From Ginglymostoma cirratum (taxonomy: Eukaryota), in contig JAHRHZ010000029.1 of NCBI GenBank assembly GCA_024137785.1, positions 35,521,137 through 35,585,136 of the forward strand: DNA of 64,000 nt, given 5' to 3'. The notes below the pieces were generated by a model that was not told where the DNA came from, searched no databases, and saw only the letters and a program-made list of their open reading frames with translations. This document shows, in pieces, positions 1,986 through 60,093 of this stretch (the first letter of the stretch is position 1; each line of letters starts with the position of its first letter). The position numbers and the translations under genes are program-made.

Positions 1986-1989
1986 CAGT

Positions 1990-2485: not shown

Positions 2486-3376
2486 TAAAGATACTTAAAG
2501 GAAATCAATTAGATACAATTAGGAAATCTATAAATGTTTCTATTCCAGGTTTAACAGAATACTCTGCCAAATCATTTCAACACAATAAATCTCTATGAAG
2601 CAGTCTGTTTCAAGGGTAGATTTATGCTGGATAAAAGACTTGTGTTCCCTGAGGAATGGGATGTGACTATCATTTCTCAACAGCTTTCAGAGAATAATTC
2701 ATTCCCTGACCTTTGCATATTTTAAAAAATTAAATTCGAAGTGAAGGATTGATGATCCAATTGTCAAAATGCATTTTGTTTGCTCGTTGTAAGGGAGTGG
2801 TCTTTTATTAACAGATAATGAAAGTTTTGACTAAAATGAGACTCTGCATCAGTCTCATTTCATCATTACAGTTCATGGACAGGGCAAATTGTTCTCGTGG
2901 TAAACATCAAAAATAAAGTTGAAAAGAATTACAAAGCAACATAAGCTACACTAAAGATGCACCCAATTACATGGCAAATCCCGTCTGATTACGAGGGTGT
3001 CAAAGCTCAGTTAGGCTCCTTCAGTTTTATTTTCTGCTGTGAAAAGAGACTGCTAACGACACACTTTTCTGTCCTGTGCGATGCTTCACTTCAGCTGACC
3101 TGAAAAATATGAATTGGTTGAATCTTTTCAGCATATTTAAACCTATGTTGTCTAAGATATGATTGTATTATCTTGGAAATTTCTTTGCGAGAAATAAACT
3201 GAGCCAATCATGACTGAGCGCGCACTCCACCACTAACTATCAGGCAATTTATTCTCCGGGGTAATTCCTCTGAATGTTGCAATGGCTGACAAAATGGTTG
3301 CCAATGCATATGCAGATGGGACCAGTGTCATCACTGTTCTGCTTTTGAGTGTGTGCAGGTACGGTCTGTTGAACTG

Positions 3377-3865
3377 GAGATAATAGGTACTGCAGATGCT
3401 GGAGAATCCGAGATAANNNNNNNNNNNNNNNNNNNNNNNNNNNNNNNNNNNNNNNNNNNNNNNNNNNNNNNNNNNNNNNNNNNNNNNNNNNNNNNNNNNN
3501 NNNNNNNNNNNNNNNNNNNNNNNNNNNNNNNNNNNNNNNNNNNNNNNNNNNNNNNNNNNNNNNNNNNNNNNNNNNNNNNNNNNNNNNNNNNNNNNNNNNN
3601 NNNNNNNNNNNNNNNNNNNNNNNNNNNNNNNNNNNNNNNNNNNNNNNNNNNNNNNNNNNNNNNNNNNNNNNNNNNNNNNNNNNNNNNNNNNNNNNNNNNN
3701 NNNNNNNNNNNNNNNNNNNNNNNNNNNNNNNNNNNNNNNNNNNNNNNNNNNNNNNNNNNNNNNNNNNNNNNNNNNNNNNNNNNNNNNNNNNNNNNNNNNN
3801 NNNNNNNNNNNNNNNNGATGCTGCTTGGCCTTCTGTGTTCATCCAGCTCCACACCTTGTTATCTC
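3377..3865. mobile_element. Penelope-like (PLE) fold-back insertion spanning an assembly gap, 14-bp TSD
   Basis: Inverted pLTR ends gagataatagg... and ...gttatctc match the end of the PLE at 52952-54784. Direct repeat ggtctgttgaactg at 3363-3376 and 3866-3879. Confidence 0.85.
3417..3816. other. Assembly gap (400 N)
   Basis: Run of N. Confidence 1.
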
Positions 3866-6157
3866 GGTCTGTTGAACTGTCTGTTTTCTGTGAAGGATTT
3901 TGCTTCTGTGAAAAGGGAGTCTCTCACAGGCAGCAATGCAGATTGTTCTGTCCCCTAAAGTTTTTTTTCTGGAGTCCATTAAGGTTCATAGTAAATTTGA
4001 AGCCTTGTAGAGATTCTTATCTTTTGTTCAATAGATTGCAGATGATGATGGGGCTGTGGGATAGGCATTGCTTAATTAAACCCACAGACAGCAGAAACCC
4101 ATGCATCTGATCACTCCTGAGCAATCCATGGTGTGAATCCTGCTCCACTCCAGTCAATATTTACAGTAACTAGGACACAGGAAAGAGCTCAGTAAAGTCA
4201 GGGAGTTATTTCTTCAAACAAAACAACCTCCTAGGAACTTCTTCCAAAGTGCTCAATTTCATCTTGAAATGTTTTTGGCAATCATCTCCTCAGGAAATTT
4301 CATTGATTTCAGTGAGCTCAGGAGTTTAACTGCAGTACTGTGCCCTCATTAAACTGGCAGTACCATCTTTGATCCAGGCAGCTGTCAGTTTACTGCCAAG
4401 CGGTGTTTGAATAAACAATGATCTTTGCTTTTTTTATTGATATGCCATAAGTTCAAATCTGGATCTTTCCCCATATAAGTGGGTGTTCAGTAGATCTTCA
4501 GTGCTGGCCTATTACTTACAGTTAAACTATAGGCCTGGACTGGTCAACGTGTGAAATTGTTTAATCTGCTTTTGGAACTTTAAACTGGACAATTGATAGA
4601 CTTAAATGTAATTATTTGAATGTAGGTTCACTGGGGCTTACAATCATTGTTAATGATACCACTTCATCAGCTCTGACATTACGTTTATAACAGCAATATC
4701 ACTAATTGTGGGCACTCAGATGAATCTTCCTGAGCTCACAAGTTGCCTGATCTTTTCACACAATATCAGACCAGATTTTCCTGCAAAATAAACCATACAT
4801 TAATCACCAAACATCTCAATCTCTTCGTTGCTAACTTGTTCCTTATCTTCCAGCATTTCTAAGTACAGCATGTTGGGGAGCAACGCAAACATTTCCTTCT
4901 AACAATTCCACAAGTGCTTTTGGTACAAGGTGTTCCTCTGTTTATGAACCACTGGGGATTAGTTGTTAGAAATAGCACCAGCTAACGGCCACAATGTCTT
5001 TACTTTCATAGAGTGACAGAGAGAACAGACCCCTGAGCTGCAATAGGTAATGCCACAGCCTCTTTTACTTTTGTTCAACATTAAACTTATATTGTCAGAT
5101 TAACAGAGTTATAAATCTGGTATTTAATACTGTTGGACAATAGTTTAATTAAAATATGATGGAAAAACTGGACTTAGCATCGCCTATCATTATATCAACT
5201 TCAAGGGACTGGCAGTCTTAACTTTGGCTGCACCCAATAACCCATTTGATTTTCAAAAGAGCTTCTGCAATTGGTTCCCCTTCATTGTAAAGCAAAATAT
5301 TTTTCAATAAAACTTACTTGAAGAAAACTAAATGTTAATATCACACTTTTATTAAACGCCGATACACTGGGTTAAGAAATTGTCTTCTAGCACGTAAGCA
5401 CATTTTAAATGAAGAATGGTCAGAATAAAGTTTTGTCAACAACTCAATACTTTTCCAAGCAATATTGCTTTTATTTTCCAAATCAAAGTAGAATTAAAAC
5501 TAGCTAATGTGAAGAAAAATCATAATTGTTGATTTGATGGAAGTGGAGTTACCATAAATATTTTCTAATTGTACCCTGTGGGAATAACAGGAGAGCTCTG
5601 GGAAAGATACAAGTGGCACAGTTATTTTTGTAAGTCATTCACTCCATGATTTTCTTTTTTATTTTGCTTGAATCAAGTGTCTCTGTGCAATGGAACAACT
5701 TCCCAGGAAAATCTGGGCTAGAGCAATTACTGTTTGTAGCTCCGTAAAGTAGCAATCAAAGATTTTTCTTTTTTTTTTGCAATGACAGAGCTTGAATGTA
5801 ATCAATGCTTATCTTTCATGAGTGAAAATGAAATATACTGACAAAATCATTGAGTTCAATTAGACCTCATCCCAGCTACTTCCAGAGAAGACAATCTGTT
5901 TGTTTTAGAACTGCAATAGAACCAGCTACTCAATATTTCACAAGATAAATGAATAATTTTTGAATATGTCGTGCCTAGGTTTCCATTATCTCCCCACCTC
6001 ATACTTTGTAACTGTGAGGAACTGCAGTGAGATTCATTCTGTTAACATTCTGCTTAAGTTATTATTATCTTTCACACAGGGTGGATATTCTAACAACTTT
6101 AGAACATCTACTGAATGGTCTAATTTACCAATGTCCCCATGAGTTAAAGAAAGGTCA

Positions 6158-6281
6158 TAATGTGGAGGTCCTGATACTGGACTGGAATGGACAAAGTCAG
6201 AAGTCACATGACACCAGGTTATAGTCCAACAGGTTTATTTAAAATCACAAGTTCTCAGAGCACTGTTCCTTCATCAGGTGA
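6158..6281 (-). mobile_element. Short PLE pLTR copy (family D) with decayed hammerhead core
   Basis: Matches the arms of 39385-40354. Reverse complement begins tcacCTGATGAaggaacagtgctctGAGAacttgtga. Confidence 0.8.
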
Positions 6282-6390
6282 CTGTAAAGGGAGAGGTGGA
6301 GAAGGAGAGCCCTTCACAGTAATTTTGGCATGAATTGAATTCATGCCGTTGACACTACACTATGGAGTCATGCCAGCCTTCCCTACTGTC
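6282..6390 (-). mobile_element. tRNA-derived SINE fragment (same family as 32085-32290)
   Basis: Reverse-complement similarity to 32085-32200 (ttactgtgaagg...ctccttctc). Confidence 0.55.
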
Positions 6391-9200: not shown

Positions 9201-9207
9201 CAGTTTA

Positions 9208-10680: not shown

Positions 10681-10699
10681 TTTCAATATTATATGCTAT

Positions 10700-17200: not shown

Positions 17201-18532
17201 GCATATGTTCATGCTTTTAACTTGAAAAGCACAGTATCCTTCAAAGGATTATAATTCGAGTTGATATTCTTTACAGCTTGTTAAATGTGGGAAAAAATAT
17301 TTGTCGGAGGAACACCTTGGAGTTGACTTGCAGCTTATCCCCATAATTTCCAGGATGCATGCACTGTGAAGCATCACCAGTAGAATCCTTGCTGTGAGAA
17401 ATACATAATTATTCTGATAATTACTTTATGTTTGTTTCAGAGAACAAGTTCACAGTTAATCTTTTAAACCTCGTTTGAATTAAGCATGATTACAAAGCAA
17501 TTTTTTAAAGTGTTCATTTTTATTTTTGAGAGATAAAGGTTAATGCAGGTGACACAGAAGGTGATTTGTTGAACCTAATGTTTTGATTTAATACCAGAAA
17601 TATAATTGTAATAATCTGAAGTAAAAAGAGAAAATGCTGTACATACCCAGCAGGGCTTGTGATGGCTGCGGGCTGGACTGATGATGTGTTAAGTTTAGAA
17701 GCTAGCAGCATCTGTACTGATCGTCTGCCTATCAGGATTTGTAGAAAACCTAGCACTATCCCTGTGACAGCCAACCTCAGAAACTTTCTCCCAGGTCAGA
17801 TATGAAGATCCGTGGATTGTCCTAACTCTGAGCTCCCAGATTGAGAATGAAAATTCACACATATGTTTAACCAGCATGTTGAACATAATTTTTAAAATTG
17901 CTTATAGATATCGAAAACCAAGGTTTAATTACAAATTGTATTGCAAACAAATATTACTCATTATAATATTTACCTGTTTCTTCCATCAAATGGTTTGAAG
18001 ACGTAATCAAGAATATGATCTGACCACATGATTTGATAAATTCCAGACAAACACTAGTTTTATACCTTATAAAAAAAACCTCATTTATGAGCAATAATTG
18101 TGGATATCATTTGGTTTTCAATCTTCATGCATGATCAGGATGGGCTAAATGGACACTCTGTAATCTTTTTGCTTCCCTATATTTAGGCAACCAAGTTTGA
18201 AAAATAACACCGAATCAAATCAAAAAATAACTGATTCTGTAGCAAAAGCTTAGAAGTACAGTCCAAGTCTGTTAAAACTGCTACAATGATCAGATGAAGA
18301 GTTCAATAGAAGTGTAATGTGTTTGTCTTCCTCTTGCATTAGTACTTGTTGGTAATGATCAATTTTAGGAATTATTTATGGTTAGGTTGTCTTCTGTCTT
18401 CCAAATATGGTCAATTGTAGCACTCCCATTCTCAGCACTACTCAGAATTCCAGACTCAGATATAAGTGCTGTAAGTGAAGGCTTGGCTCTGTTTTGGGCG
18501 CATTTGCAAATGAGCAGCCAACTTCATGTTTA

Positions 18533-18674
18533 GTGATAATAGGTACTGCAGATGCTGGAGAATCCGAGATAACAAGGTGTGGAGCTGAATGAACACAGCA
18601 GGCCAAGCAGCATCATAGGCCCGAAACGTCAAGCTTTCCTGCTCCTATGATGCTGCTTGGCCTGCTGTGTTCAT
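18533..18674. mobile_element. Short PLE fold-back insertion, 10-bp TSD
   Basis: Inverted arms (gaacacagcaggccaagcagcatcatagg / cctatgatgctgcttggcctgctgtgttc). TSD ttcatgttta at 18523-18532 and 18670-18679. Confidence 0.88.
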
Positions 18675-20132
18675 GTTTAATGAACAGCTAACTCATATGA
18701 ACAAATCAGAGTCACTTATGAAACAAACGTAATTTACATATCCAAATAACATTTTCACTGCAGTCTACTTTATGTACAATTATTAGACCATAGTTAATAA
18801 TACTACATTAGATCTGCTACTGTCTAGTTTTATTGACAGAAATGCTGATGACATTTTGCAGGTGGAAGAGCATTATGTTTTGGAATAAAATATTACAAAT
18901 GCAGGAAGTAAAATCACGAATAATTTCTCTGGAGTTTTTTTTCTGTGTTTGTTAATCAACTAGCACAAATATTTTTGTGGAAAAGTGTGACATTATTTTC
19001 TTGGATCCATTAAATAAAGCATTTGTGACAGTCCACTGCAGCCTCATATCATTTTTAAATGAAGAATTTATTCCTATATTCCACAGAGAGTATGTGGTTG
19101 ATTCTGCTGATAGATTAAGGCTGAGAACAGTCAAGAATTATCAACATAAACATGAAATGTTCTGGTTCCTGTCCCTCACTAGACCTCAAGCATGGTAAAG
19201 CTGTTCTATTGGGGTGCTTAACAGAGTGACATTTTGTCTGCATTGAGGACATAAGAATGTCATAAAAATAAAGGACTCTGTCAGTTCCTCAAGTTCAAAT
19301 TGCAGCTAATCATTCATAGGTACAACATTTGACTATGTCTGAAATGATCTGTGACAAGTGTGTATGTGCGCAGGAATTGAAGTTGCCACTATGGTAATTG
19401 GCAGGTTATGCTTTTGTATGTCAAGTTGTCCTGTCTGTCCTTGATGCTTTTGCTTTGTACTGTTCCCTTCGCTTTCCTTCCACATTCACTGGTTTACTTC
19501 AGCTCAGATTACGATTGTGCAGCCTAAAGTGATTTTTGTTATTAATTCGATGCAACATTGTTTTAAAGGTCGGTCATTTTAGCTTCAGCGTTTGTTGAAA
19601 GTGTTGATTATATAGAAGACAGATGAAGAATGCCCAGAGACACATCTTGTAGCTGCACTAATTTGTTGAACAATGAAATGGTGAAACTTGGACTCATACC
19701 GAATGATTTCAAGGGATCTATCAGTTGATTAAGCATTTACCCAAAATTAAGGAAGGAAAATGAGCTCAGTCTGAATGGAATAATAACAGCAATAATAATT
19801 TCACTTTTCAGTAAGGGTGACTTGATGCAGGATGTAAAGGAATTTGAAAACAAAGAGTGTGAAAATCTGATGTTGGAAGCATTGAAATCTCAGTAATTAA
19901 CAACTTGGAGATTTTTCTGCACAGCTTGATTTCAATTCCACTGATGGCCACTTCCCCCATCATTCTTATCCAAATTATAAACTAAAGAATCACATTTCCT
20001 CTTTCTGTCACTTGGCACAGTGGTGATGTCCCTACCTCTGGGCCAGGAGGCCTGGGTGCTAGTCCCAGCCACTCCAGAGAATTGTAACAATATTTCTGAA
20101 CGTGCTGGGTTTGAGTTATAAAAATAGGCTTG

Positions 20133-23671: not shown

Positions 23672-23901
23672 TAAAGACAAAATACCTTAGATGCTGGAAA
23701 TCTGAAATAAGCACAGAGAAGGTTAGAGAAACTCAACAGGTTTGGCAGCACCTGTGGAGAGAGAAACAGAGTTAACGTTTCATGTCTGGAATGATTCTCA
23801 GCTTTGAAGAAGGGGAACTGGATCCAAAATGTTTAATCTGTTTTCTCTTCACAAGTGCTGTCAGACCTGCTGAGTTTCTCCAGCATTTTCTGTGTTTGTC
23901 T
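23672..23901. mobile_element. Short PLE fold-back insertion (family B)
   Basis: Inverted arms aaactcaacaggtttggcagca / tgctgtcagacctgctgagtttct; decayed TGAAGA...AAAATG core. Confidence 0.8.
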
Positions 23902-24287: not shown

Positions 24288-24331
24288 CTCTTGAGGCAGT
24301 CTGACACTTTTGTTGGCCTCCATTGTCAGTT

Positions 24332-24556
24332 ATGACGCAGTGTGGAGCTGGAGAAACACAGCAGGCCAGGCAGCATCAGAGGAGCAGGAAAGCTGATGTT
24401 TTGGCTTGGGACTGTTCTTCAGAAATCATTTCTGAAGAAGTGTCCTGATCCGAAACATCAACTTTCCTGTTCCTCTGATGCTGCCTGGCCTGCTGTGTTT
24501 CTCCAGCTCCACTCTATGTTATCTCTGACTCTGGCATCGGCAGTTCTTACTATCTC
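24332..24556. mobile_element. Short PLE fold-back insertion centred at 24427
   Basis: Centre reads cttcagaaat-c-atttctgaag; arms are about 95 bp and only the right arm carries the tail. Confidence 0.9.
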
Positions 24557-27014
24557 TATTGTTGGTGAGTTTGCTTGGCAGGAAGTTCTGTAATGAGTTT
24601 AAGAGTGGTCAGAGGCTGTGAAAGGGCTAATAAAAGGTAACAATAGTGATAAAGAGTTGCAAAGAACAATTTATTCCTTCCAAAGATATGATGAGATGAG
24701 GGCTCCTGCTGTAAGGTCAACCCTTATGTTGATCAACTAATTAAAAGAAAGGCAGATTTGAATGAGGCATGGGAGTGGTCTTCCATTGTGTTTCTGGCAT
24801 TCTAGAATGGAACTGCTGCAAGAATGTGATCCTTTATTCCCCCATTTCTAATTCATCCCATTGCACTCATATCTGTTTGTGGAAAAGTATCAAATTAGAG
24901 GAGATTTTACAATGAACTTTACAAAGGCAGTATGTTGCATAACTGGCAAGATGTAGTTATAAGCACAGACTGTTAGTGACTAAAAGGACAAGGCATGTTA
25001 ATGCAGCAAATAAGGAAAACACATTTCTATACATTACCAAAGGAGCACAATGAGCAGTTCATTCTTAACAGTGAAAACTTTGAAGCATTTAAGAAGCTTT
25101 CTGAGAAATGTATTAGAAACTTTTGACACAGGTTTTTAATGAAGTAGAATTGTCTACTTTTTTTCAAAAAATGATTGAAACAGGATTTATAAAAGCTTTA
25201 AAAAGCAAAGGAAAGACATACTTTTATGTCCAGCTGAGGAGTGGAGAATCATCTCTCTGCTTGTTACCTCCTCTATTGATCACAGTAGTTTTTTTTAATA
25301 TATTGCTTTTAGTACGCAGCTATATTGCATTACAATGAAAACAGAGTACTAGTCAAAGTTATGAGCCAATTACAAGGTTTTCTTCAGTGTAAGAAAGAGG
25401 AATTGTATCACTTACTGAATCTAAATAAAATGATAAAACAGGGTGAGCACACAGAAACGCGAGCATGACAGTTAAAAGGGGGAGGGTGTCCAATAAAATA
25501 AATATGTATAGATAAAGATAAGATAAAGAACATGTAGTTTAAAAAAAAAGTTCTGAAAGCCTTTGAGTAGTTATGTTTGAACCTGAGACCATGGTTGCTT
25601 AGGTGGTTCCTTATATCCTCAGCAGCAGTGAAATTTGTTGGATCCTTGAATTCTTGGTAAACAGATGAATCTCTGATTTGTTTTATTACCACTGCTGGCT
25701 TTTGAGATTATGAAAAAGAAACAGGAAGAGAGAGAGTGTGTATTTTTTTTCTCTGTCTGCTGCTCTGTGAAATAGCTACTGAAATATGGTTTGTTTGTAT
25801 ATTACCAAGTCTAGCTCCATTTTCTTTCCAAGCTGGATAGTTAGAGGTAACCATTTCAAGTCTAGTATATACGATACCTCATAGTAACAAAAAGTCAAAC
25901 AGGAGATGTGTGTTTCTTGCTGCCTGACTCAGTTAACTGGCTTTAATGTCTTGAAATAAAATGGTGGTTTCAGTTCTGATCAGATTGTTAACTTTACATT
26001 TGTTTCCTGAATTTGCCTCAATCTGTGATCGGGTAATTTCTGGTCATATTCGGTCCATGCTTTTTTTTAAATTTTAAGAACTATTTTAGTCTAAGCCTCA
26101 GGTTTGGACATCAAATATTGGAAGGTGAAAATGAATAGTCTATATTTTACCACTATCATGAAAACATAAGACGAATATTTAAAGTACACAGTAAAAAGGT
26201 TAAGGCTTGAAACCCAGGAATAGCATGGTCAATATTTACTGTTGTAAAGGCTGATGATTCTATAATTTTCTGCTAGACATGGAAGGACAAACAGGGAAAA
26301 AAAAATGGGGAAAAAAATGCTGCAATTTACCAGCTGCTCATACAGATTTTTTTAGCTCAGTTACCTCCAGGATCCAAAGTCATGAAACTATTTACAGTTA
26401 ATGATCAGGTTTCTATTACAGGTAGGGCGGAGATTAAACCTATTAGCTCAGTATTTGCAGAGGTGTGTAGCGGTACTTGGGGAATTATTTTCTGAATATT
26501 TTCTAAATGATGATGTCTTTAAAATGTATTGACTCCATGATTGGCATAATTTGGTTGCTGTCTATTTATTTTAAGGTAATTCCGTGGAAGTTGTGTTATT
26601 TGAATGTTGAAATTTTTTTTCGGTTAATTGAAGAATGTAGATTGACTTTAAAAATGCACTCAATAAATCAAAACCTTGCAAAAAGAGAGGTCTTACAAGT
26701 AATTGGAGGGTGGGAGAGTCAGATGGATAGTGTATGCGTGTGAAGATCTTCATTTGTACTTAAGATTTTTAGTATCAAACAATATAAAGCATCTCGGTAT
26801 TTATGACAGGTAGTAAGTGTGAGTTTATGTCAAATAATCACGTATAAAACTATCAAACAAAGCTTTGTTCCTACAGACAATTATCAGATAGAAAATGCAA
26901 TTTAAAGAAGAATGAAATAGTAAGATTGGCATTGTTATGAGAATGTGTAGCTAATAATAAACAGAGTTATATCTGCTTCATCAATGAAAAAACTGCAATC
27001 GGAACATAATAATA

Positions 27015-27636
27015 GAAAAACAGAAATTGCTGGAGAAGCTCAGCAGATCTGGCAGCATCAGTAGAGAGAGAGAAAAACATTTACTTTTGAGTCTGGTCTG
27101 ACTTTTACATGAAACTGAAAGGGGCTGGAAAATTATGTTTTTATGCTGTTGGCAGAGGGGCAAGAGGAGCAAGTGGAAACAGATGGAAGGTGTCCAGACC
27201 AACAGGCAAAGGGCATGCAAATGGTGATAGAGTGGATTGTAAAGATTACAGGTTAATGTTCGGTGTTAATAGCAGAAAATAGATCAGTTCTGCTGAGAGC
27301 AAACCCATCAAACAGGGCACAAAAACAGAAATTGCTGAAGAAGCTCACCAGGTCTGGCAGCATCTGTAGGTAATAATCAGAGTAAAATGCTTCAGGTCGA
27401 GTGACCCCTTCTGAGGGGGGAATATTAACATGCCACTCCTCCAGGGTGGCCACTTATTTTGCTTCTCTTCCCCTCTGACCACAACATCAAAACCATCATT
27501 TTCCTGGTCTCTTAGTTCAGAAGAAACATTAAACTCTGTTTCTCTTTCCATAAATGCTGCCAGACCTGTTTAGTTTTTCCAGCAATTTCTGCTGTTATGT
27601 CGGATTTCCAGCATCCCACAGTATTTTGCTTTCATT
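27015..27636. mobile_element. Older PLE fold-back with a nested short PLE (about 27318-27415)
   Basis: cagaaattgctggagaagctcagcag occurs twice on minus, with a plus arm tgctgccagacctg...ttccagcatc. Confidence 0.75.
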
Positions 27637-28720
27637 TGAGTAAAATATAATGACAGTCTTAGAAGTAAATTAATTAATTTCTTCAGGAACCACTACTGCA
27701 AAAAGTGCAACATGAACCAGTATCTAAGTCTGTGATTGGATAATTATGATAAACCTGACATTGTTAATCAGAGTGATAGATGGGATTACAGCGGTTGGAT
27801 TTCCATTGCCTTAATTCATTATTATCACAGTTGTTGCACCAAAATTACCTGTCTTCATTTTGTTACATACTTCACAGTAATTTGACATTTTTAAATGTTT
27901 TGACTTGATTGATCTATTATCTGGTTTAAATAATTATCCATTCAGTTTTTTTACCTCTGTAATCGCACACATCTGTGCAATATCCTAACAGTACTGTCAA
28001 CATTCTATTTTCAGTTAAAAGGTTTCAATATGTCAAATTCTCATTCATTGAGAAAACGACAAATGGATTTTTTTTTGTCCAAGAATGAGCTTGTATACAG
28101 TTGAATTTTTTTCCTGAGAGGATTCTCATTGTAATTAACTGACTCCCCTTAGGAGTATACCTGCCTGGTTTGAAAGCTGGACTTCTTTGTGTGGTGATAT
28201 TGAGATGAATTTGGAATCTGCACAGTTGCGGACTGCTGCAAAGTTGGGTAGTCAGCACTGCTGGGATCAGAAGGAGGTCCATTTTTGGATGAGGCAGAAC
28301 ATTTCCCCCCCTCCCCCCGCCCCGCTCCTAAGAGCCAACAATGGTGCTGCCAAAGCAGGTGCAGTCCAGACTGGGTTTCTCAGAACTTGACAGGGGGCTG
28401 CATCAGTTTACCTCGATGAAACTCCTAAACCATTGTCAGCTGCTGGGAATCCTACTTCTATCCAGTTATGTCAATTCTTTTAATATCGTAGGACCAATGA
28501 TTTGTATTTTTAAAGCGCCTGCCATCTGGTGGTGGGTTGATCAGGCTGCCTATAGGACCGAGGAAACACTGTCATAGACTTGAACCAATAACAATGAGCC
28601 AGTTGGTCAACATTCCTCACTGTGAGCACAAACAGAAGACCTGATAGGTCTCTCGATGTAGGTGGGGAAACATTGAAGTTGTGGTCAGTTGATGTTGAAC
28701 AAACTGTAATATTAATTGAC

Positions 28721-29727: not shown

Positions 29728-30412
29728 AATGTTATTCGACTGATGATTAATCATACCACATCAGGTTAATGTTGACTATAGCATGTTTAAAAACAAGAAA
29801 TTTCCTCAATTTAGTTATATTACCAGAATAAGTAAAATCTTTTTATTTATTTATACATGGAATGTGAACATCATGGGCTGGGCCAGTATTTATTGTCCAC
29901 TCCTAAATTGTCATGCTTATTGCTGATGTGAAACTTCAAAGCTACATATTGTGATGAAGGGTGAGTGTAAATATTGAAGGCAACACTGTACTTTTCGTTT
30001 AGAATAATCAAGGTTTGATTTTAACTTTCAAACACCAAGAGTTTGAAAACATTTAGAATAATTTTTGGCGCAGATATTTGGAGTCAGAAGAAAATGTATT
30101 TGATAATTTCCCCTTATTTTTATGAGCCCAGCTGATGACACTACTGGTCAATTCAGCTGTCGGAATGTAATCTGACTTGACAGACTACGCACTTTTTTAA
30201 CTTCATGGTGATTCATTGAAACACAGAGACAAAAGGCTGCAGATTTTCTTTCACAATAAGATAAATATTTATTATGTAAAGAAAGAAAAAGATCTAAAAC
30301 ATGCCAAACCATATAAATATAGAATCCAGCTTGAAAGATCTTAAAACACAGAGTAAAACAAAGTCTTATCCATTTCCCAACAGCCTCACTTTACAACGAT
30401 TTCAAATCCAGA

Positions 30413-33878: not shown

Positions 33879-35501
33879 AAGTGCTTCCAAATCATTCCAG
33901 TTCCCCTGCCCTTTGATGTGACATTTTGTTTTCATTCAGAAGGGTACTAACTTGTTAATCCTGATTTCAGGATTTAAAAATTGTCCCCCAAGTGTCCTTG
34001 CTGTTTATTTTAAGATTCTCCGGACCCCAAGTTTACTGGAGTCAATTAGACAACCACTTGCCCTGTGAACACAGCAGAGGAGATAACAAGCCTACAGCTA
34101 GTATTCTGGTCCACAGGAAGCAGTTATAAACTTGGAAGAATGGTTAAGAATTGAGATGTGAAGAAACTGTCACAATAAACCGAAATGTAACAAGCTCTGA
34201 GTTGGCAACACTTCTGAGTTTTTGAATCTTTAGCGTGTCATTTAGTTTTTAAGGAGTAAATATCCACCCAAAGGTTGCTGCATTAATGTTTTACTGTAGC
34301 TTAATCAAACTGTGTTTTGCCCTCATTAACTCTCATGGTATGCCTGGCTTCTGTTAAATTACTAGTGACTTAAAGTCAGAAGTTGTGTTATTAGCTATCG
34401 CTGCTCATGGTGTAATCCACTCAAAGTAAAGGGATAATGGATAAAGCAAAAGAATTGTGAAGTATTTTGAACTTTGTATTTTAAGTAGGGCCCGACTGGG
34501 CATCAAAACTTGCAAAGATTACGCCAATTTAAAATGTAAAATTAGCCATACTGTTTCAATTTGGAGGCAGTAGATTTGGACAGTTTATTAGTTGCAGAGC
34601 AATGAGATCCATTCAGCCAGCTTTCTCTGTGGTAGGATCAGCTCCGTAGCACCCTCATTTTCTGAATTAGTGCTTCTTCATGCTTCTAATTGAAAAGTGG
34701 AGAAGACAGCATTTTCTGAGGTTTTGAATTCTTCAGCTAGTGCCTGCAGCTTATATACTTGTAAATGAAATGTAAATAATCAGAAGTGTTTTGATGCTTT
34801 GATTGGCCTTTCAGTTTGTTGTTTCTGCCTAATTAAGGCAATGGAACTATGGAGGACTCAGCAATGTCTTATGACATTATTTAATTTTGAGTAGAGAGCA
34901 ATTACATTCTCCTGTAATACCCCTAGGTCGGGGTTTAATTACTGAAATGGCATTCTTATTAACATGCATTACTTTATCTATCAAAAAAAATACTCTTTTA
35001 GACAAGTTGAAAGTTCTTCAAAATCATTATCTGTGTATGTAATGTCTCAACAGCCGCAGGCAGTACATCCCATCAGACGCTGCGTGGATGAGCTTCACTA
35101 ACGTTCGATAGCAAATTGCATTACGTCAGTAGAATGCACATTTAAGTGGTTTTACACAGCAACAAAGACAATGTGAGACTTTGTATTGATCACAAAGGCA
35201 GAAAGAGAACACAGGCTGAACATCTTTTTGTTTTCGTTCTGAGTGTTTTGTCATTTTGTTCCTCACCTGTGGACATACGTTACTATATAGCTCAGAGACA
35301 GGCAGCCAATAGGGGACAAAGGTCATTCAGGCCACTTAGCTGGCCTATACCTCATCCATATATAAAATCTACTCGAAACATCTGTTTTGCTTTTTTATGA
35401 AGCACAGGTGCCTCTACCCGTATTTAATGGGAACTGATCCATCATCTTGTTGTTCACAAAGTTGTGTTAGAGCAATTCATTAGAAACATACTTCTAATGA
35501 T

Positions 35502-35630
35502 CTGTTCTGGGGAAAGTTCACTGGACCCAAAATGTTAACTCTGATTTCTCTCCACAGATGCTACCAGACCTGCTGAGCTTTTCCAGCAATTTGTTCCTGA
35601 TTTCCAACATCTGCAGTCATTTCAATTTTT
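35502..35630 (+). mobile_element. Short PLE (family B), perfect 14-bp TSD
   Basis: atacttctaatgat at 35488-35501 and 35631-35644. Confidence 0.88.
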
Positions 35631-35891
35631 ATACTTCTAATGATTTTAACTCAAAATATTGAGCTTATTCCATAAGCTTTATTTTGACAATATGATGTTA
35701 AGAAAGTAACTCTCAGCTCTTCAGTTATCTTTCTGACTTAAGGAAAATCAGACAATGTCCCCTTATTTTATTTTTCACTAATTAATGTAACTTAATTTTC
35801 TTAGTCTGCGCTATTTGGGAAGACATTCAAGATCAAGATGTTTGTGAAACCTGTTTAAGAATTGAAGAATAGATCATTCTTAGAGGAAACT

Positions 35892-36052
35892 GAGATGACA
35901 CAGTATAGAGCTGGAGGAACACAGCAGGTCAGGCAGCGTCAGAGGAGCAGGAACGTTGAAGGGTCCCGACCCAAAGCTACCTGGCTTGCTGTGTTCTTCC
36001 AGCTCCACACTTTGTTATCTCTGACTCCAGCATCAGCAGTTCTTACTATCTC
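35892..36052. mobile_element. Short PLE fold-back, about 15-bp TSD
   Basis: Inverted arms; flanks tcattcttagaggaa (35874-35888) and tcattcttggtggaa (36051-36065). Confidence 0.85.
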
Positions 36053-36289
36053 ATTCTTGGTGGAATTTCCTTTACAGTCAAACATTGTGCTCCACGTGAC
36101 TGCCAGACAGTATTTGTATTGTACAAGGGTAAAGTACTGAAAGGTCACCCTTTCAGGTTGTCAGTTTCATTGAGTGTTCTTTGAGAGAGATGAACAGATC
36201 CTTGTTAGGTAGGAAATATACAATTCATACAGACAGAGTGACCTTGATCTTACTGAATGGTAGAGGGTCCCCTATTGAAGGAAATATGT

Positions 36290-37639: not shown

Positions 37640-38200
37640 TTAGGAACACAAAAACAGGAATAGGCCATTCAATCCATCGAGCCTGCCCCATTATTCGATG
37701 CGATCATGGCTGATTGAATACTTCAGTGCATTTTACCAAAACCATCTCCTTAACCTTGTATGCTATGGTTAATCAGAAAACAGTCAATCTCTACCTTAGA
37801 TAGCAGGAACTGCCGATGCTGGAGAATCTGAGATAAGAAGGTATAGAGCTTAATGAACACAGCAGGACAAGCAGCATCAGAGGAGCAGGAAAGCTGATGG
37901 TTTGGGTCTAAACCCTTCTTCAGAAAACATTCAGATTTTTGGCTCCACACCTTGTTATCTCACAATCTCTACCTTAAACAGGCATGAAGACAGAGCTTCC
38001 ACAGCCTTCTGTGAAATTCAAAGTTTTACAATAATCTGAGTAAAAATATTTGTCATCATCTCAGACGTAAATGCCATCCCCCCCTTATTTTTAAACTGAG
38101 CCCTTCTCATTCTAGATTCTCCAACCAGGGGAACCAGCTAACCTCAATCAACCCTGTCTGTCCTTTTAAAGTATTTTATAATTTTTGTTGAGATCACTTA
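37640..38200 (-). mobile_element. CR1 3' tail containing a PLE insertion
   Basis: caggaataggccattc...gatcatggctga tail. Confidence 0.7.
37798..37961. mobile_element. Short PLE fold-back, 14-bp TSD
   Basis: caatctctacctta at 37785-37798 and 37963-37976. Confidence 0.88.
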
Positions 38201-39145: not shown

Positions 39146-39384
39146 TTCAGCACATGGAAATTACTTCATAATGGTTTCTTGACAATCCTTTGGTTTTTCT
39201 GTTTTAAGGAATGATTGCTATTTATGCCACACTTTTCACCACCTCTGGATATTTAAACCAGTTTACAGCCAATCTCACTGTCAATAGATGCCACTAGATT
39301 TCAGCAAGATATTAGATTAGATTCTTCACTCAATGCCATTGGTTTAATACAGCATCTACAACTCTTACCAGATGCAAATAGTCA

Positions 39385-40354
39385 GAAGTCACACAACACC
39401 AGGTTATAGTCCAACAGGTTTATTTGAAATCACAAGCTATTGGAGCGCTGCTCCTTCATCAGGTGAAGTAGAGGGAAGCACACAGGCACAGAATTTATAA
39501 GCAGAGAGGTCAATGCAAGACAATTCTAGGTAATTAAGAATGTCAGAGATTGTACAAATGCTGTGAGTGGAGTTGTCAACAGCTGAATAACAAGCAAAGG
39601 GATGACCTATACTCTGATTAAATAAGGCAGAGAAATAATTTCCAAAAATCAAAAATAAGGTGGCGCTGGAGATGAACCAACTGCCTAGAACAACATGATT
39701 GGCATAGGAGTCAGATGATGAGGGTCTAACCAAAGTAACAAGTAATCCAAAACTGTACAAACTAATTAAGGTAGAGAAATCATACCAAGTTATCAAGGTG
39801 ATGGTGTAAAAACAGGACAGTAAGGAAGATTTTACAATTAGAGAATTTATATGGTCAGGTTATATATAGCGCCACATAAACCCAAGATCATGGTTGAGGC
39901 CACCTTCATGGGTACAGAATTGGCTATCAGTTTCTGCTCGGTGATACAGAACAACGCAGAATCTTGAAGTCCACCTTGAGGGATGTTTACCCAAAAATTG
40001 GGGGCTGAATGTCCTTGATCATTGATGTTTCATCCTTTTACGTGCTATTCAGCTGTTGACACTTTACTCACATGGTTTGACACTTTTAATCACTTGCAAA
40101 GATTTGTTATTCAGCTGTCGATGCTTCACTCAGATCATTTGTACTATGTTTTGACATTCTTAATTAACTAGAATTATCTTGCAATGATCTTTCTGCCTGT
40201 AATATCTGTGCCTTTTTTCTTCCCTCCACTTCACCTGATGAAGGAGCAGTGCTTCGAAAGCTTGTGATTTCAAATAAACCTGTTGAACTATGACCTGGTG
40301 CCATGTGATTTCTGACATTGTCCACCCCAGTCCAACACCAACACCTCTGCATCA
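39385..40354. mobile_element. PLE fold-back (family D), 16-bp TSD
   Basis: Inverted pLTR arms; cagatgcaaatagtca at 39369-39384 and 40355-40370. Confidence 0.92.
40231..40267 (+). ncRNA. Minimal type I hammerhead ribozyme (best copy)
   Basis: UCAC-CUGAUGA-A-GGAGC-AGU-GCUUC-GAAA-GCUU-GUGA: stem I UCAC/GUGA, 5-bp stem II, and palindromic AAGCUU in place of stem III. Confidence 0.85.
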
Positions 40355-40629
40355 CAGATGCAAATAGTCACAAAAACACACAGCTTCTTGGAGTTTCACA
40401 GTTTTAGATAAAACAATAAAGTAAGCAATACTGGAAGACTGTGACACTGGAAGATGGCTGGTGTAAACACAAGTAGAATTTGCACGCCTGTGGGATGGGG
40501 AAGACATTAAGAGATGACTCAACAATGAAGAATAACAAAGAAAATCAATGCATTTAAATTGCTATTCCCCAACATGACAGGAAAATAAATAGTAGTTCAA
40601 GTTTAGAATATAGGAGGTGAATTTTTTTT

Positions 40630-50935: not shown

Positions 50936-51174
50936 GTAAAGATGGTAGATTTCCTTTTCTGAAGGACATCAGTGAACCAAATGTGTCTTTCCAAGAATCA
51001 ACCGTGGTTTTGTGGTCATCATTAATTTTTAAATTCAATAAAGAAAGATCCAGACTTAAAATTCCACTATCTACCATGATGGGATTTGAGACTGGCTTCA
51101 AGAACATTACTTGGGTCTCTGGATTACGAGTTTAGCAATAATACCACTCGGCCATGACCTCCCCAGATTGTTTC

Positions 51175-52553: not shown

Positions 52554-52952
52554 AAAAGACACCATGATGCTTCGGGGCTTCTATTATTCGTTGTGCATGA
52601 AAAGAGATTGAAATTTGGATGAAGATACTAATTGAATGAGATGATCAACTTTTCTCTATGCTTTAGAGTTTGGCTTCAGTTTGATTGCTTGCATCACTCG
52701 GATAACCCAACCATGGGCTCGAGCAGTTAATTATTTTAGAATAGAAACAACAATAAACACAAAATTATAAATTTATTATAAAGCAAAACCCATTTATTGA
52801 GATATGGAATTCGTTAACACACAAAATTCATTTTATGAAAATATAAATATGTACAATGCTAAACAGAACAAAAACACACACGGCTCAGGTAAAGGGAATA
52901 AAAAAGTTTTCTCTTGGCAGAATTTCACTTCAAAAAGAAACAAAAACTCTTA

Positions 52953-53049
52953 ACTATGGACGTCTAGTCCCTATAAACACCTCATTTTTACTATGGACGT
53001 CCAGTCCCTATAAACACCTCATTTTTACTATGGACGTCCAGTCCCTATA
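52953..53049 (+). repeat. 37-bp tandem repeat (about 2.6 copies) at the PLE 5' junction
   Basis: actatggacgtc(c/t)agtccctataaacacctcattttt starting at 52953, 52990 and 53027. Confidence 0.95.
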
Positions 53050-54439
53050 CACCTGTATTCCCCATGCTGATGGCCTAAAGGCCCTCCGCTTCTTCCTGTC
53101 CAGCAGAACTGACCAATCCCCCTCCACCGACACCCTCATCCACTTAGCCGAACTCGTCCTCACCCTCAACAACTTTTCTTTCAATTCCTCCCACTTCCTA
53201 CAGACAAAGGGGGTGGCCATGGGTACCCACATGGGTCCAAGCTATGCCTGCCTCTTTGTAGGTTACGTGGAACAATCCCTCTTCCGTACCTACACTAGCC
53301 CTAAACCCCACCTCTTCCTCTGTTACATTGATGACTGTATTGGCGCCGCCTCGTGCTCCCACGAGGAGCTCGAACAGTTCATCCACTTCACCAACACCTT
53401 CCACCCCAACCTTAAGTTCACCTGGACCATCTCTGATATCTCTCTCTCCTTCCTGGACCTCTCTGTCTCCATTTCTGGCAACCACCTAGAAACCGATATC
53501 TATTTCAAGCCCACCAACTCCCACAGCTACCTAGAATACACCTCCTCCCACCCACCTTCCTGAAAAAAGGCCATCCCCTGTTCCCAATTCCTTCGCCTCC
53601 GCAGCATCTGCTCCCGAGATGAGGCATTCTACTCCCGGACATCCCAGATGTCCTCATTTTTCAAGGACTGCAACTTCCCCTCCATAGTGGTCGAAAATGC
53701 CCTCGACCGTGTCTCCCGCATTTCCCGCAAATCATGCCTCACACCCCCTACCCGCAGTAACAACCAAAACTGAATCCCCCTCATCCTCATGTACCACCCC
53801 ACCAACCTCCAAATCCAATGCATCATCCTCCGACACTTCCGCCATCTGCAACCTGACCCCACTACCAAAGACATTTTTCGCTCCCCACCCTTATCTGGTT
53901 TCCGGAGGGACCACTCTCTCTGTGACTCCCTTGTCCGCTCCACAATCCCCTCCAGCCCCACCTCACCCGGCACTTTACCCTGCAACTGCAGGAAGTGCTA
54001 CACTTGCCCCTACACCTCCCCCCTCACCCCCATCCCAGGCCCTCAGAAGACCTTTCACATCAAACAGATGTTCACCTGCACATCTACTCATGTGGTATAC
54101 TGCATCCGCTGTACCCGTTGTGGCCTCCTCTACATCAGGGAAACCAAGCGGAGGCTTGGGGACCGCTTTGCGGAACACCTATGCTCGGTTCGCAACAAAC
54201 AACTACACCTCCCAGTCACGAACCATTTCAACAACCCCTCCCACTCCTTAGACGACATGTCCATCCTGGGCCTCCTGCAATGCCACAATGATGCCACCCG
54301 ACAGCTGCAGGAACAGCATCTCATATTTTGCTTGGGAACCCTGCAGCCCAAGGGTATCAATGTGGACTTCACCAGCTTCAAAATCTCCCCTCCTCCGAAC
54401 GCATCCCAAAACCAGCCCAGCTCGTCCCCGCCTCCCTAA
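53012..54439 (+). pseudogene. PLE RT/GIY-YIG ORF, one frame with two premature TGA stops
   Basis: Track ORFs 52856-53563 and 53789-54439 share a frame; in-frame TGA at 53561-53563 and 53771-53773. Confidence 0.9.
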
Positions 54440-54684
54440 CCATTCCTCCCACCTCAAGCCCCACCCCCATCTCCTACCCACTAATCTCATCCTGACTCCT
54501 TGACCCGTCCATCCTTCTTGGACCGACCTATCCCCTCCCTACCTCCCCACCTACATTCATCTTTACTGGCTCCAACCCCGCCTCTTTGACCTGTCTGTCT
54601 CCTCTCCACCTATCTTCTCCTTTATCCATCTCCTATCCACCTCCCCCTCTCTCCCTATTTATTTCAGAATCCCCTTACCCTCCT

Positions 54685-54721
54685 CCATTTCTGAAGAAGG
54701 GTCTTGACCCAAAACATCAGC
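54685..54721 (+). ncRNA. Inr-like motif plus decayed hammerhead in the pLTR
   Basis: CCATTT-CTGAAGA-AGGG-tcttga-CCC-AAAAC-ATC; GAAAC and GTC each have a G>A change at a CpG. Confidence 0.6.
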
Positions 54722-57299
54722 TTTCCTGCTCCTCTGATGCTGTTTGGCCTGCTGTGTTCATCCAGCTCGACACCTTGTTATCTCAAAAACTCTTTCTGGC
54801 TATTTTGTTTATTGTTGAGGCAAAAGAATAAAATATAAAATGTTCCGATGAGCTGCTTTTTTTGCACCAGTGGCCAATTACATCTACGGCCTTGACAGAC
54901 ACAGCTTGCTCAGGAAGTACAATATTGAGAAGTTCAGTCACTCTTCCAGACAAACAATCAGGTTTCACACTAAATGTACCACAAAATGCTTCAGAAGGAG
55001 GAGACATGAACTGGGTAACCTTTCCCAAGCAGATTTTATCTAAGTGATTCCAAACAGAAACAATTTTCTGAGCCACACTCTGTTCAAACAAGATAGGCAT
55101 AAAGCTCAGGCAGGTAAGATCTGAAAAGTGACTCTATGTAATTATCTGAGGACATATTATTTCCAAGAACCTTGAACATCATTTAAAAAATGCTTAAACG
55201 TTCAAGATTCTTCTAGTGACCTTTCTTTAAACTAATTCAAATACCCAAGTAGAATCTGAAAGGTTTATATTTGCGCAATTCTTTAAAACTCAAGTCCTCA
55301 AAGAAATATCAAAGTGAAGTGGTTTATTAACAATGGAAATAATTAATTTCACTTTACAATCTTCACTGCTGATTTTGGTGCCTCTTAATGTTGTCAACAT
55401 CATTACCAATAAATGCCGGCCTGGAGATGGGGTGACTGTCACTAGGAAATATCTTTAATTAATCAACTCTACCTTTAAAAAAAGGATACTCATCAAACAC
55501 TGAGTATAATTCATTTCTATCAGGGCAACAGAATTCACTGATTTCATCAACACATTTGAGCTATGCATCTGGTAACCAAAATTTCACAAGAGACTATCAA
55601 GCTTCCTCCACTCCTGTCAGAATTCTGATCGGTTGATTTGATGGAGATGCAGTTGTAGATAGAATTGGGAAACCTACCAAAACCTGACTGTGATTATGAA
55701 ATACAAGATCGTCAATAATTATTAATTTGTCCGTACATACTAGTAACAGACTGGTACAAGTCAGTAACAATGAATTGTTGCAAACCTTGATTGCTTTTTT
55801 AGGAAGTGCCTCTTTCAAAATCTGAATTTTGGTTCATTGTCCACAAAAATATCCTCTCATATTGAAAATCACAAAGAAACTGACTGGCTGTGAACTGAAG
55901 AGTTAGGTTGAACGAAGTTGTATCCAGCCCAGTGAAGACAAGTTTCCATTTAAGATCTTTAGGACATATTACAGGAATTACTAAAAATATTATTGTTTTA
56001 TTTATTCTGTACAAGGCAATACTAAGGGAATCTGTCTCTTTAATAAATGATCCCTATTAGTGCTTTTACGATCACTTTATCAAATGACATATTTTATTAT
56101 TGCATGATGACTCATTAAAATAACAGTTCCAGATGTTAGTATTTTAGAAATTTTACAATCCTTTTGGTCGTGTGCAAACAGCAGACCCATTCTGGGCATG
56201 GTACTGTGTGTCATTTTAGAATATCTTTAAGAATGATTTGAGTAGCTTTTCTTCAGACTGTGAAAAGTGTCTGTGTATTCACTATGTGTCAGCAAGATGA
56301 GAAGGAACCTTCTTAAAAAACCTCAAGGATTCGATGAGCAAAAATGTCAGAAATTTAAATCTGGCCTTTTACCGTTTTTTCTATTTCCCTTGCTCAGTGT
56401 AAATATTCTGTGACTGTCTGGGAATAATATTCCTTTAAAACTTTCCCATCTGAAGTTTTGTTATAAACCTGACTGTAAGTCCAATTTTTACTGAGTTGGA
56501 TTGACTGGTGAGCCTGAGAGATAGGCTGGATGAGGAGTGTGGGAATGGCGTGGATTGGGGGAGTGGGCATTTTTTTTTTAAAACACCTACCCCTGGGGTG
56601 GGCCTTTTAACCAATCTGCCGTGGCAAACAGTCGTCCACATGGCTCTTCTGAACTTTGTCCAGGGTCATCTGATCAAAATTCTGCCAGCACTTGAGAATG
56701 AAAATGCTGCCTCAGGAACCACTCTTCCCACCGCCCACCTCCAGAATTCAAACCAGGCTATCCATTGCATTGCTAGTTAATGTACTGGAGACATGTGCTG
56801 CAGAAATTGCTGTGCCCCCAGTTAAGTTATTCCAGTCCAGCGACAACCCTTGACCTCTTCCCAATTATGTGGGCAATTATCCAGATTTGTCCTGTCCACA
56901 AAAAGTAGGACAAATCCAACTTGGACTGTTGCGTCTTTGGTCTCTTCGCAATCATTAACGAAGTGACGGAAGGCACCGTCAACACATTAATGTCTTTGAT
57001 TTTCAATTTCAGTTCTGCCAGGGCCATTCAGCTCCAAGCCTCTCTATAATTTCAGTCCAAATTTGGACAAAAGAGCTGAATGCAAGATGTGAGATGAAAG
57101 TAGCTGCCCTTCATATTACGGTAGTGTTTCAGGAGCCCTTGCAAAAGGAGTGAAAAAGAATCAGGGTCAGGGGGGGAGAGCTCTCCAGTGGTTGGATTCA
57201 CTTTCAGAAGAAAGGAAGGGTATTACAATTGTTGAAGATCAAAAACTTCACTGCAAAACATTGCTGCATTTGCATAAGGGTCACTGCGAACAGAATACA

Positions 57300-58441: not shown

Positions 58442-58940
58442 TGATGTAGGGCTGCAGGAGAATTGTTGCCTGTTACAATTAAATTGGACATTGTTTCAAG
58501 GCACCAGCTCAGTTACAAATTGAGGGGGTCTTTCTGTGATTCTAAAATTATAATCATTCATTGGTGGGGGTGTTGGAGTGGGTGTGGGAAGGGGTTTATT
58601 CAATTGCATTAGAGCTACAAATATGTTCAACAGCAGTGTAACCAATTTGATTGGTGTTGGGGGTTCAGGGGCGAAAGGAAGTCTCTAATCAGAGAAGGGA
58701 CAGAACTGAAGCAGGAATATTCATTCACAGTCTTCTATAGCTGTGATTCTGCTCCCCAGCTCTTACTGGAGAACCTGCAACTGTGTAACTCATAGTCACT
58801 GATTAGTGCAGTCAGTGTTTCTGTTTCCAATTGCCCCCTAATTTCCTGTGTGACATAATCATTTAGTTCAGATGAGGATTAAACAGGGGTGTGGGGACCA
58901 CTGTGGACAGGATCTTGTGGAAGCTCTGGTTGGAGAGATA

Positions 58941-59889
58941 TTGAAAGACCAAGGGACTTCCTCTTGGGAATGGCAGTCATGTGCTTTGTCAGTCAGGCAA
59001 GTCAGCAGTGTCTGGTCTTCCGCACAGTATCCTGGACCCCCACACCCACCCCAATCGCTTCCCCTCACTGCCACCACATCCTGGGGCAGGAATCCCACCT
59101 GTTGAGATCCAGTGGCAAATAAAAGGTTAGGAGCTCTTCGGTGCTCAACAGCAACACTGGGAGACAGTGGCAGCTGCTGGAACTGCACTCTGTACAGCCT
59201 CAGACTGAGGCGTGACTGAAACGAAAGGTTGGGGGATGGCAGGAAGGAGGTCAGGGGCAGTAAGTCGAGGGCTAAAGGGAGCTCACAGTAAAGGCAGGGG
59301 GATTTCCATCAGTGAGCTTCACCCAGCCTAATACCCGGTTTGGTGATGAAGTGTGTTTGAATGAGGAATGCCCCACTCCAGGTGCCCAGAAGCTGACATG
59401 TCAGGGCCTGGATGGCATGCTCCCAGCTGGTGAAGCCCCTCCCAGCCCCACAGCTGCATTGATACCAGTGGAGACAGATGGGCTCCTTCACTGGGCATTA
59501 AGTCCCAATTCACAGCCTGAAATGGCAGTGGAGAGTGAAGGCTGTGGAGTAGACAGGTGAAGGCAGCCATTCATTAAACTTCCTGATGAAATTCCCCATT
59601 GCCCACAAATCTATCATGAATAATGCACAAGATTCTCTTTAATTTGACCTTAATGTCACTCATTGCACAGTAAACATGAACCGTGCATTGTTAATCCTGA
59701 CAACACTGTTAGCAGTAATTGCATTGTAAACCCCTCACTGCACCGTTAATCCTCACTATACTGGTAACTCCCGACTGTCCTGCTAACTTTCAGCACACGC
59801 GTAATCATTTGAAAGGCCAAGGGACTTCCTCTTGGAAATAACAATCATGTGCTTTGTCACTCAGGCAAGTCAGCAGCGTCTGGTCTTCC
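58941..59889 (+). repeat. Dispersed 81-bp direct repeat (58941-59021 and 59809-59889)
   Basis: 74/81 identity by manual alignment. Confidence 0.9.
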
Positions 59890-59893
59890 TGCT

Positions 59894-60093
59894 GTTAAAA
59901 CACAGAGCTGGAGGAGCACAGCAGGTCAGACAGCATCAGAGGAGCATGAAAGTCATCGTTTTGGGTCTGGACCCTTCGCCAGGATCTGAAACATCGACTT
60001 TCCTGCTCCTGTGGTGCTGTCTGACCTGCTGTGCTCCTCCAGCTCCACGTTTTATTGACTCTGACTTTCAGCATCTGCAGTCCTTGCTATCCC
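59894..60093. mobile_element. Short PLE fold-back
   Basis: Arms gagctggaggagcacagcaggtcagacagca / tgctgtctgacctgctgtgctcctccagctc; tail on the right arm only. Confidence 0.88.

Follow-up and report, generated by a model that had tools for sequence, protein, structure and literature searches.

The fold-back insertions of Penelope-like elements (PLEs) in Ginglymostoma cirratum almost always carry a tail at one outer end and lack it at the other, and this one-tail pattern is more than chance. The outer ends lie at a canonical short end (S) and a tail end (T), both positions in the element RNA, and we consider it likely, with a probability of roughly 0.55, that they are produced by one dimer on one RNA, one nick being primed at each site. 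The core idea of an earlier note on this DNA, a programmed priming at two RNA positions, is supported and is not new. What is new is the strictness of the tail/short pairing, which refines a known class of elements and does not constitute a new system.

In the window, the whole stretch of 64,000 nt that was analysed, the tail is found on exactly one side at 11/11 named sites: on the left at 3377, 28723, 37798, 23672 and 18533, and on the right at 24556, 30704, 36052, 40317-40354, 60093 and 27636, as had been listed earlier. The tails at 3377-3409 (33 nt), 28723-28756 (34 nt) and 40317-40354 (38 nt) likewise have the extents first given for them; the general length of 33-38 nt was wrong, the range being 31-39 nt, with tails of 31 nt ending at 24556 and 36052. 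The observation that the short end and the tail end of family A both finish in (T)TATCTC was confirmed. Similar T-rich ends occur at both sites in families B and D and are absent in C.

Among the family A pairs, the one at 3362..3879 has its tail on the left, a short arm on the right ending at 3865, an N run between the arms, and an exact TSD of 15 nt (3362-3376 / 3865-3879). At 18523..18683 the left tail (18533-18565) is paired with a right arm ending at 18674 (TSD 13/14 match), and at 37785..37976 a tail arm from 37798 is paired with a short arm of ~20 nt ending at 37961, with an exact TSD of 14 nt. The tail is on the right at 35874..36065 (short left end 35892, 31-nt tail 36022-36052, TSD 13/15 match), at 24329..24556 (31-nt tail subfamily, short end left, tail 24526-24556) and at 59893..60093 (tail ~60062-60093). 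The family A insertion at 30399..30718 has a short arm on the left from 30413, while on the right a duplicated RT fragment carries nothing but the tail (30672-30704), with a TSD showing microhomology; as this right arm consists of just tail on an ORF fragment, it does not repeat the left arm in inverted orientation. Family B provides a pair at 23672..23899, with the tail left and the short end right at 23899, and an insertion at 27014..27636 with two left short arms (27014, 27319) and a right tail arm (27599-27636). The pair at 28708..29740 belongs to family D, a relative of A and B; its short end is on the right at 29727, both arms extend to the endonuclease C-terminus, and the TSD (28708-28720 / 29728-29740) is weak, with a 10/13 match and a score of 4. 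In the family C pair (39369..40370) a left short arm of 680 nt (39381-40060), reaching up to the endonuclease C-terminus, is followed by a right tail arm (40104-40354); 4 nt of the exact 16-nt TSD are common to the short end. A TSD score of at least 9 was obtained at 6/11 named sites (3377, 18533, 30704, 36052, 37798 and 40354), and the search at these 11 sites found no TSD at 23672, 24556, 27636 and 60093. The partner arm ends before S at two sites, by 23 nt at 18533 and by ~12-16 nt at 60093. Two one-armed copies lie on the + strand: a 5′-truncated family A copy (52941..54794) ending at the short end 54784, with an 11-nt TSD and no tail at either end, and a family B copy (35488..35643) with a tail at its end, a 14-nt TSD and no short-end partner.

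By their sequence features the elements are EN+ GIY-YIG PLEs with a Neptune/Nematis-type linker. The family A copy at 52941..54794 comprises RT, a CxxCxxC linker, GIY-YIG endonuclease, 3′ UTR and a putative minimal hammerhead motif; Pfam matches RVT_1 at E=6e-7 and GIY-YIG at E=0.012, the latter short of the curated cut-off. The order is RT, then C-terminal GIY-YIG endonuclease, then terminal repeat, and homologous RT/EN lies upstream of the A, B and D arms; upstream of C arms the C-terminal half of EN was read by eye from broken frames. The endonuclease CCHH motif (VVYCIRCTRCGLLYIRE, EHL, NHF) lies within 53774-54439 and the DKG motif upstream of RT reads KPADKGG in copy L174, both motifs being as defined in PMC8557442. 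The pLTR is the 5′ part of the ORF-bearing RNA with an optional tail of 30-40 bp and a TSD, and read-through copies extend past the end region and into the ORF. A putative minimal hammerhead (CUGAnGA-stem-GAAAC-GUC), of a form described in PMC4209133, was recognized by eye in all families, Rfam giving no match. Between RT and EN a CX2-5CxxC linker reads CRKCYTC in A and CRRCNTC in B, with a weak linker-like motif in one broken C copy; the Penelope/Poseidon clade, which requires that no linker zinc finger be present, was rejected on this ground.

The rule was examined in ~1 Mb of sampled sequence, where 39/39 TSD-bounded pairs are tail/short. These were assigned from TSD position alone, for which the null is 2/300; they belong to families A (17), B (15) and C (7), have the tail on the left in 19 and on the right in 20, and have TSDs of 13-14 nt in 21/39 (range 10-19). 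With the window itself excluded, 38/38 TSD pairs are one-tailed (p=6e-11). Among pairs shorter than 700 nt, 63/70 have one tail, six none and one two (Fisher p=9e-13). A further 13/13 insertions that have a TSD and whose second arm is short were T/S by eye, and the rule is kept in the ORF-bearing insertions L187 and L192. A genome-wide search with sequence patterns gave 5,926 family A pairs, at most 181 of which have the tail tag on both arms versus 1,098 expected by independence; in family C there are 20 both-tail pairs versus 75 expected. The pairs thereby pass the test that the earlier note had suggested, and the independence of the two tails that would have spoken against the proposal does not hold in A, B or C. 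The one-tail rule stands for these three families, though not without rare true exceptions: these are one S/S-like pair (TSD score 9), one T/+72 pair, and L213, the single true T/T pair with a TSD among twenty both-tail cases inspected, six of which end outwardly at S next to a TSD. Selection against hairpins was rejected as a cause, as an asymmetry of the outer ends would leave the hairpin core unchanged.

The start windows are each ~10 nt wide, from S-8 to S+3 and from S+28 to S+41. Two primed nicks with RNA positions about 35 nt apart are upheld in principle, by the start sites of PMC11167929 and the failure of independence, while the "fixed" positions of the earlier note become windows. 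Both sites are upstream of the ORF and must be internal to the RNA, because copies read through T into the ORF with the DKG motif (L174); tandem read-through copies also exist. Each site can prime by itself: among the TSD-bounded copies with a single arm, 11 terminate at S and 10 at T. Microhomology averages 2.3 nt at T (at least 1 nt in 27/28) and 2.1 nt at S, with a null of 0.8. The pair span is often alike, about 190-205 nt, with arm lengths from ~20 nt to >1 kb, and inner junctions vary between copies. Internal inversions that vary as in L1 (L043-type, e.g., bL150 43161 and C29w 261175) are present as well.

Of 123 family A arm ends, 53 fall at S-92 to -101 and six at S-62 to -71, short arms being under-detected in this count; run-off at the hammerhead cut site, which would correspond to the latter interval, was rejected. 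An apparent fixed jump at S+170 proved to be an artefact of the reference copy. A transcript start at ~S-98/S-99 is putative and marked by an initiator-like motif; reads from two of the 23 listed RNA-seq runs are uninformative on it, with equal depth in both directions, steps that mirror genomic copies and no visible start. With RNAalifold, 30 A+B ends yielded no consensus structure and 11 C ends yielded a weak one, and single folds have z of +0.6 to +1.6, which leaves a core-tail stem spotted by eye unsupported.

In the mechanism that we favor, a single RNA would span both active sites of one RT-endonuclease dimer, with one nick directed to S and the other to T. Two nicks 13-15 bp apart would yield two free 3′ ends, each annealing to the RNA across 1-3 nt. 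Extension of both cDNAs would then proceed toward the 5′ end of the RNA; on passing S, the T-primed strand would displace the other, and many cDNAs would run off at ~S-98, probably the transcript start. Joining of the cDNA ends would give the head-to-head fold-back, a single surviving cDNA would leave a one-armed copy with its end at S or T, and template jumps could insert tandem segments internally while the outer ends remain one S and one T. The coupling of nick to site is read from genomic products, because PMC11167929, as far as its reported data go, saw no strand difference in start site. T-arm stops are not piled up at S (197, 222 and 186 across three adjacent windows), which speaks against collision on one RNA, so that the model would need efficient strand displacement. 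The true exceptions, and the lack of RNA structure support at S and T, also count against it, as do the in vitro findings of PMC11167929 that the start site showed no strand bias and lacked homology to the cleaved DNA. With somewhat less assurance, at a little under even odds, PLEs may normally integrate by this two-primer reaction, the tail being the RNA between the RT sites and inverted, solo and tandem pLTRs being run-off by-products. If so, this reaction would supersede the self-priming and endonuclease-resolution accounts across the Poseidon and Neptune clades, and would present a retroelement writing both sides of a staggered cut off one RNA.

The absence of a stall at S would suit coupled twin priming on two templates, in which an asymmetric dimer holds two RNAs, or two pLTRs of a tandem transcript, with its subunits working from S and T, respectively. 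The two arms differ in subfamily in 3/19 typed pairs, which weighs against a single RNA and for two, and the tandem read-through copies also favor two templates; within-pair identity exceeds that to other arms moderately in family A (0.935 versus 0.897) and not at all in C. However, 16/19 pairs share a subfamily versus ~26% by chance from pool frequencies, though age alone could explain this, and an extra source of asymmetry would be required to bar T/T and S/S; we regard this explanation as rather unlikely. Fold-back self-priming, in which a single strand folds and is copied, with the tail arising from a fixed stop or from endonuclease resolution, accounts for arms that abut (spacer -12 to +12 nt in 21/32 pairs) and mostly derive from one subfamily, and it is compatible with the junction microhomology. 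Self-priming was proposed in PMC3846280 and endonuclease resolution in PMC8557442. An S arm copied from a T-primed cDNA cannot outreach it, yet in 32 pairs the arm reaching further in is T in 11 and S in 10, with 11 ties, the S arm being longer by up to 870 nt (40 versus 910, 213 versus 680, 693 versus 1040). Later central deletions could obscure arm lengths, and arm length alone spares a version with antisense RNA. Nevertheless, tail-only arms occur without overlap with the partner (30704), many TSD-bounded insertions have S alone, and both sites were primed directly in vitro (PMC11167929). The arm lengths and one-armed copies argue against the cDNA form of this explanation, which we consider improbable.

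If both nicks primed at T, and an endonuclease or host repair then trimmed 31-39 nt from one side, the end products would be identical, and the D. virilis Penelope endonuclease is cited in PMC11167929 as needing the tail for recognition. Such trimming is very unlikely in view of the target microhomology at S, which resembles that at T, of the full TSD kept beside S, not easily preserved under trimming, and of the use of S as a direct start site in vitro (PMC11167929). Finally, copying of a master fold-back mini-element, whose single tail would be inherited, might explain the common span of ~190-205 nt; it is largely refuted by inner junctions unique to each copy, by the wide spread of arm lengths and by the rule's extension to L187 and L192, and is scarcely credible.

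Earlier papers already describe the tail on one side (PMC3846280, PMC8557442) and the pair of reverse-transcription start sites that delimit it (PMC11167929); the formation of inverted and tandem PLE structures is called open in PMC8557442 and PMC11167929. In the literature searched we found neither near-strict S/T coupling and equal solo use of both sites, nor microhomology of 1-3 nt at both sites and evidence against fold-back self-copying. A near-strict rule of one S and one T in thousands of insertions ties the start sites seen in vitro to the inverted arrangement, yields sharp predictions for the existing in vitro system, and would aid the setting of PLE boundaries in annotation.

The canonical EN+ PLE unit, with an inverted pLTR and a one-sided tail, was described by Arkhipova et al. 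2013 (PMC3846280) and Craig et al. 2021 (PMC8557442), whose relevant sections attribute the inversion to self-priming and derive the tail from endonuclease resolution, and give no counts. For PAc, a Poseidon element of the green anole lizard, Frangieh et al. 2024 (PMC11167929) report in vitro initiation at two internal sites that flank the tail, cutting and extension of both target strands, and a predicted dimer; the start site had no strand bias and was non-homologous to the cut DNA, and the main text reports neither coupling nor per-molecule pairing of start sites. PAc uses uncleaved hammerhead RNA as template. The elements described here probably resemble PAc, as reported, in the two internal start sites around the tail, in the nicking and extension of both strands and in an AC-rich tail-end sequence, and differ from it in their linker, PAc being of the Poseidon clade, and in the 1-3 nt of microhomology. 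Twin priming of L1 was reportedly described by Ostertag and Kazazian in 2001. There, the position of the second site varies, the two arms share no overlap, and the first cDNA halts at the second site. As in L1, both nicks prime on element RNA and the inversion is TSD-bounded; unlike L1, both sites are fixed here, the arms mostly cover a common stretch of 100 nt and there is no stall at S, so that L1-type twin priming proper was rejected in favor of a process that works similarly in a different form.

The window, at G000:C29:35521137-35585136, is rich in short inverted repeats belonging to Penelope-like elements (PLEs), which fall into two groups: families A, B and D, which share homology in their end regions, and family C. 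In sense order, each end region comprises a minimal hammerhead motif, approximately 66 nt, the short end (S), a tail of 31-39 nt and the tail end (T). Families B and D are homologous to a family A copy (52952-54784) encoding a reverse transcriptase (RT), a CxxCxxC linker and a GIY-YIG endonuclease with CCHH, for which the Pfam score is weak; the endonuclease of family C is divergent. By the criteria of PMC8557442, the linker motif points to a probable place in the Neptune or Nematis clade. DNA past T runs on into the N-terminus of the ORF, so both S and T lie inside the RNA. At locus L174 a long Pro/Thr/Ala-rich repeat segment in this N-terminus precedes the conserved PLE motifs.

The earlier note had claimed that one arm of nearly every inverted pair carries a tail of 33-38 nt while its partner stops short. 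At the 11 sites it named, the tail is confined to a single side in 11/11, but the length range was too narrow, measured tails spanning 31-39 nt; target-site duplications (TSDs) there score ≥9 in six cases, are weak in one and absent in four. A sample of 1.604 Mb (window included), of which 0.996 Mb is not N, was searched with models built from the core alone, which excludes the tail, so that detection was unbiased by it. This yielded 353 arms (159 A/D, 162 B and 32 C), the 3′ ends of which are bimodal with peaks at S and T, and 93 outward-facing pairs ≤4 kb apart; four were excluded for N or edges, leaving 89. A class-blind TSD search gave scores ≥10 in 39/89 pairs (2/300 shuffled pairs reach this threshold), and TSD position alone classed the 39 by left/right outer end as 19 T/S, 20 S/T, 0 T/T and 0 S/S; at score 9 there are 43 pairs and one S/S-like pair joins. 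Classed from sequence alone, pairs <700 nt comprise 63 with one tail, six with none and one with both, and all 89 pairs up to 4 kb comprise 73, 13 and three, respectively. TSDs also flank 37/184 unpaired arms, about four of which may be false given the null rate of 2.3%. After two duplicates and one element-internal repeat were dropped, 34 remained; read by eye, 13 possess a short second arm, of the opposite type every time, and the one-armed insertions are 11 S-only and 10 T-only.

Exact patterns were used to count pairs of families A and C throughout the 4.36-Gb genome, and the predicted excess of tail/no-tail pairs over independence was borne out in family A and, on the tag counts, in family C. 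Among 5,926 family A pairs (span 132-207 nt), an 8-nt tail tag occurs on the left in 2,561 and on the right in 2,541; both arms are tagged in at most 181, an upper bound obtained with a looser core, against 1,098 expected if independent. One-tagged pairs make up 80%, and the 1,005 untagged pairs include mutated tags and other subfamilies. In family C, where S is ragged, 736 pairs (tag left in 254, right in 218) include 29 both-tagged by a loose count or 20 by a strict one made by eye, against 75 expected.

In the first 20 of the 181 both-tagged family A cases, six end on the outside at S and are flanked by a TSD, in most instances beyond an internal tandem segment, and one reaches S at an edge; five continue into the ORF so far that their other end was not reached, two run into N, four lack a TSD, and the remaining two, each flanked by a TSD, are one T/+72 and one true T/T. 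Of 2,467 copies extending 10 nt past T, the first 30 include nine with a TSD, with S opposite in 9/9; two of 12 ORF-bearing loci, L187 and L192, are TSD-flanked T/S insertions. On other contigs, G000:C4:19904844-19904950 holds two outward tail ends 37 nt apart, each 10 nt past T, a candidate true tail/tail pair, and at G000:C268:15419739-15419912 a family A insertion lies within a family C end, its TSD duplicating C sequence. The one-tail asymmetry is genuine and strongly non-random.

The best explanation for this asymmetry is that two internal sites are used for priming in a coupled manner. Junctions occupy two ranges, S-8 to S+3 and S+28 to S+41; mean microhomology in the 42/58 junctions retained is 2.1 nt (S) and 2.3 nt (T) versus 0.8 by chance, TSD scoring itself mildly favoring microhomology. 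Were the S arm copied from the T arm by fold-back, it could hardly reach deeper into the element; in 32/39 TSD pairs (five were set aside for N and two were unaligned) there are 11 ties, 11 pairs in which the T arm reaches deeper and 10 in which the S arm does, with a lead of as much as 870 nt. A simple collision on one RNA is opposed by the stop rate of T arms, which is flat through S with no sign of a stall, and by arm-to-arm similarity just moderately raised within pairs.

In 53/123 family A arms the inner end falls between S-92 and S-101 (next bin, 3). This pile-up coincides with the 5′ edge of the hammerhead motif and with an initiator-like CCATTTC whose A is at S-99. Run-off at the predicted hammerhead cut near S-67 was rejected on this distribution. 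The same pile-up is seen in A arms genome-wide (e.g. 54686, 58440 and 24427 in the window), extra T or A letters are frequent at its junctions, and families B and C share an inner-end edge just 5′ of the hammerhead. Tandem units at six loci (L160, L164, L184, L203, L207 and L216) run from about S-97 through T for 40-200 nt and then return to S-97 or the 3′ UTR, which suggests template jumps following run-off. Short RT tandem duplications at 5′ junctions (52952-53050, three copies of ~31 nt; 30513-30669, two of 78 nt) are consistent with RT slippage.

The window also contains an inverted pair of a different, presumably SINE-like repeat (32434-32933), into which a family B arm has inserted (32626-32710). 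Unconnected with PLE ends are a presumably LINE-like ORF fragment at 1691-2218 (minus strand) and, at 48668-52520, inverted copies of 296 nt separated by 3.3 kb.

PMC3846280 and PMC8557442 describe a tail at one end and put forward self-priming or endonuclease resolution; PMC11167929 has two start sites flanking the tail, extension on both strands and a predicted dimer; and PMC4209133 reports the minimal hammerheads, as well as opposite-strand pairs 100-700 bp apart. The words "tail" and "priming" are absent from a 2026 retrozyme preprint, and the literature searched, mostly outside subscription journals, yielded neither counts of tail coupling nor a paper on PLE twin priming. The component parts are already known; what is new is the strictness of the asymmetry, its reach into clades that bear the linker and the findings that speak against fold-back copying.
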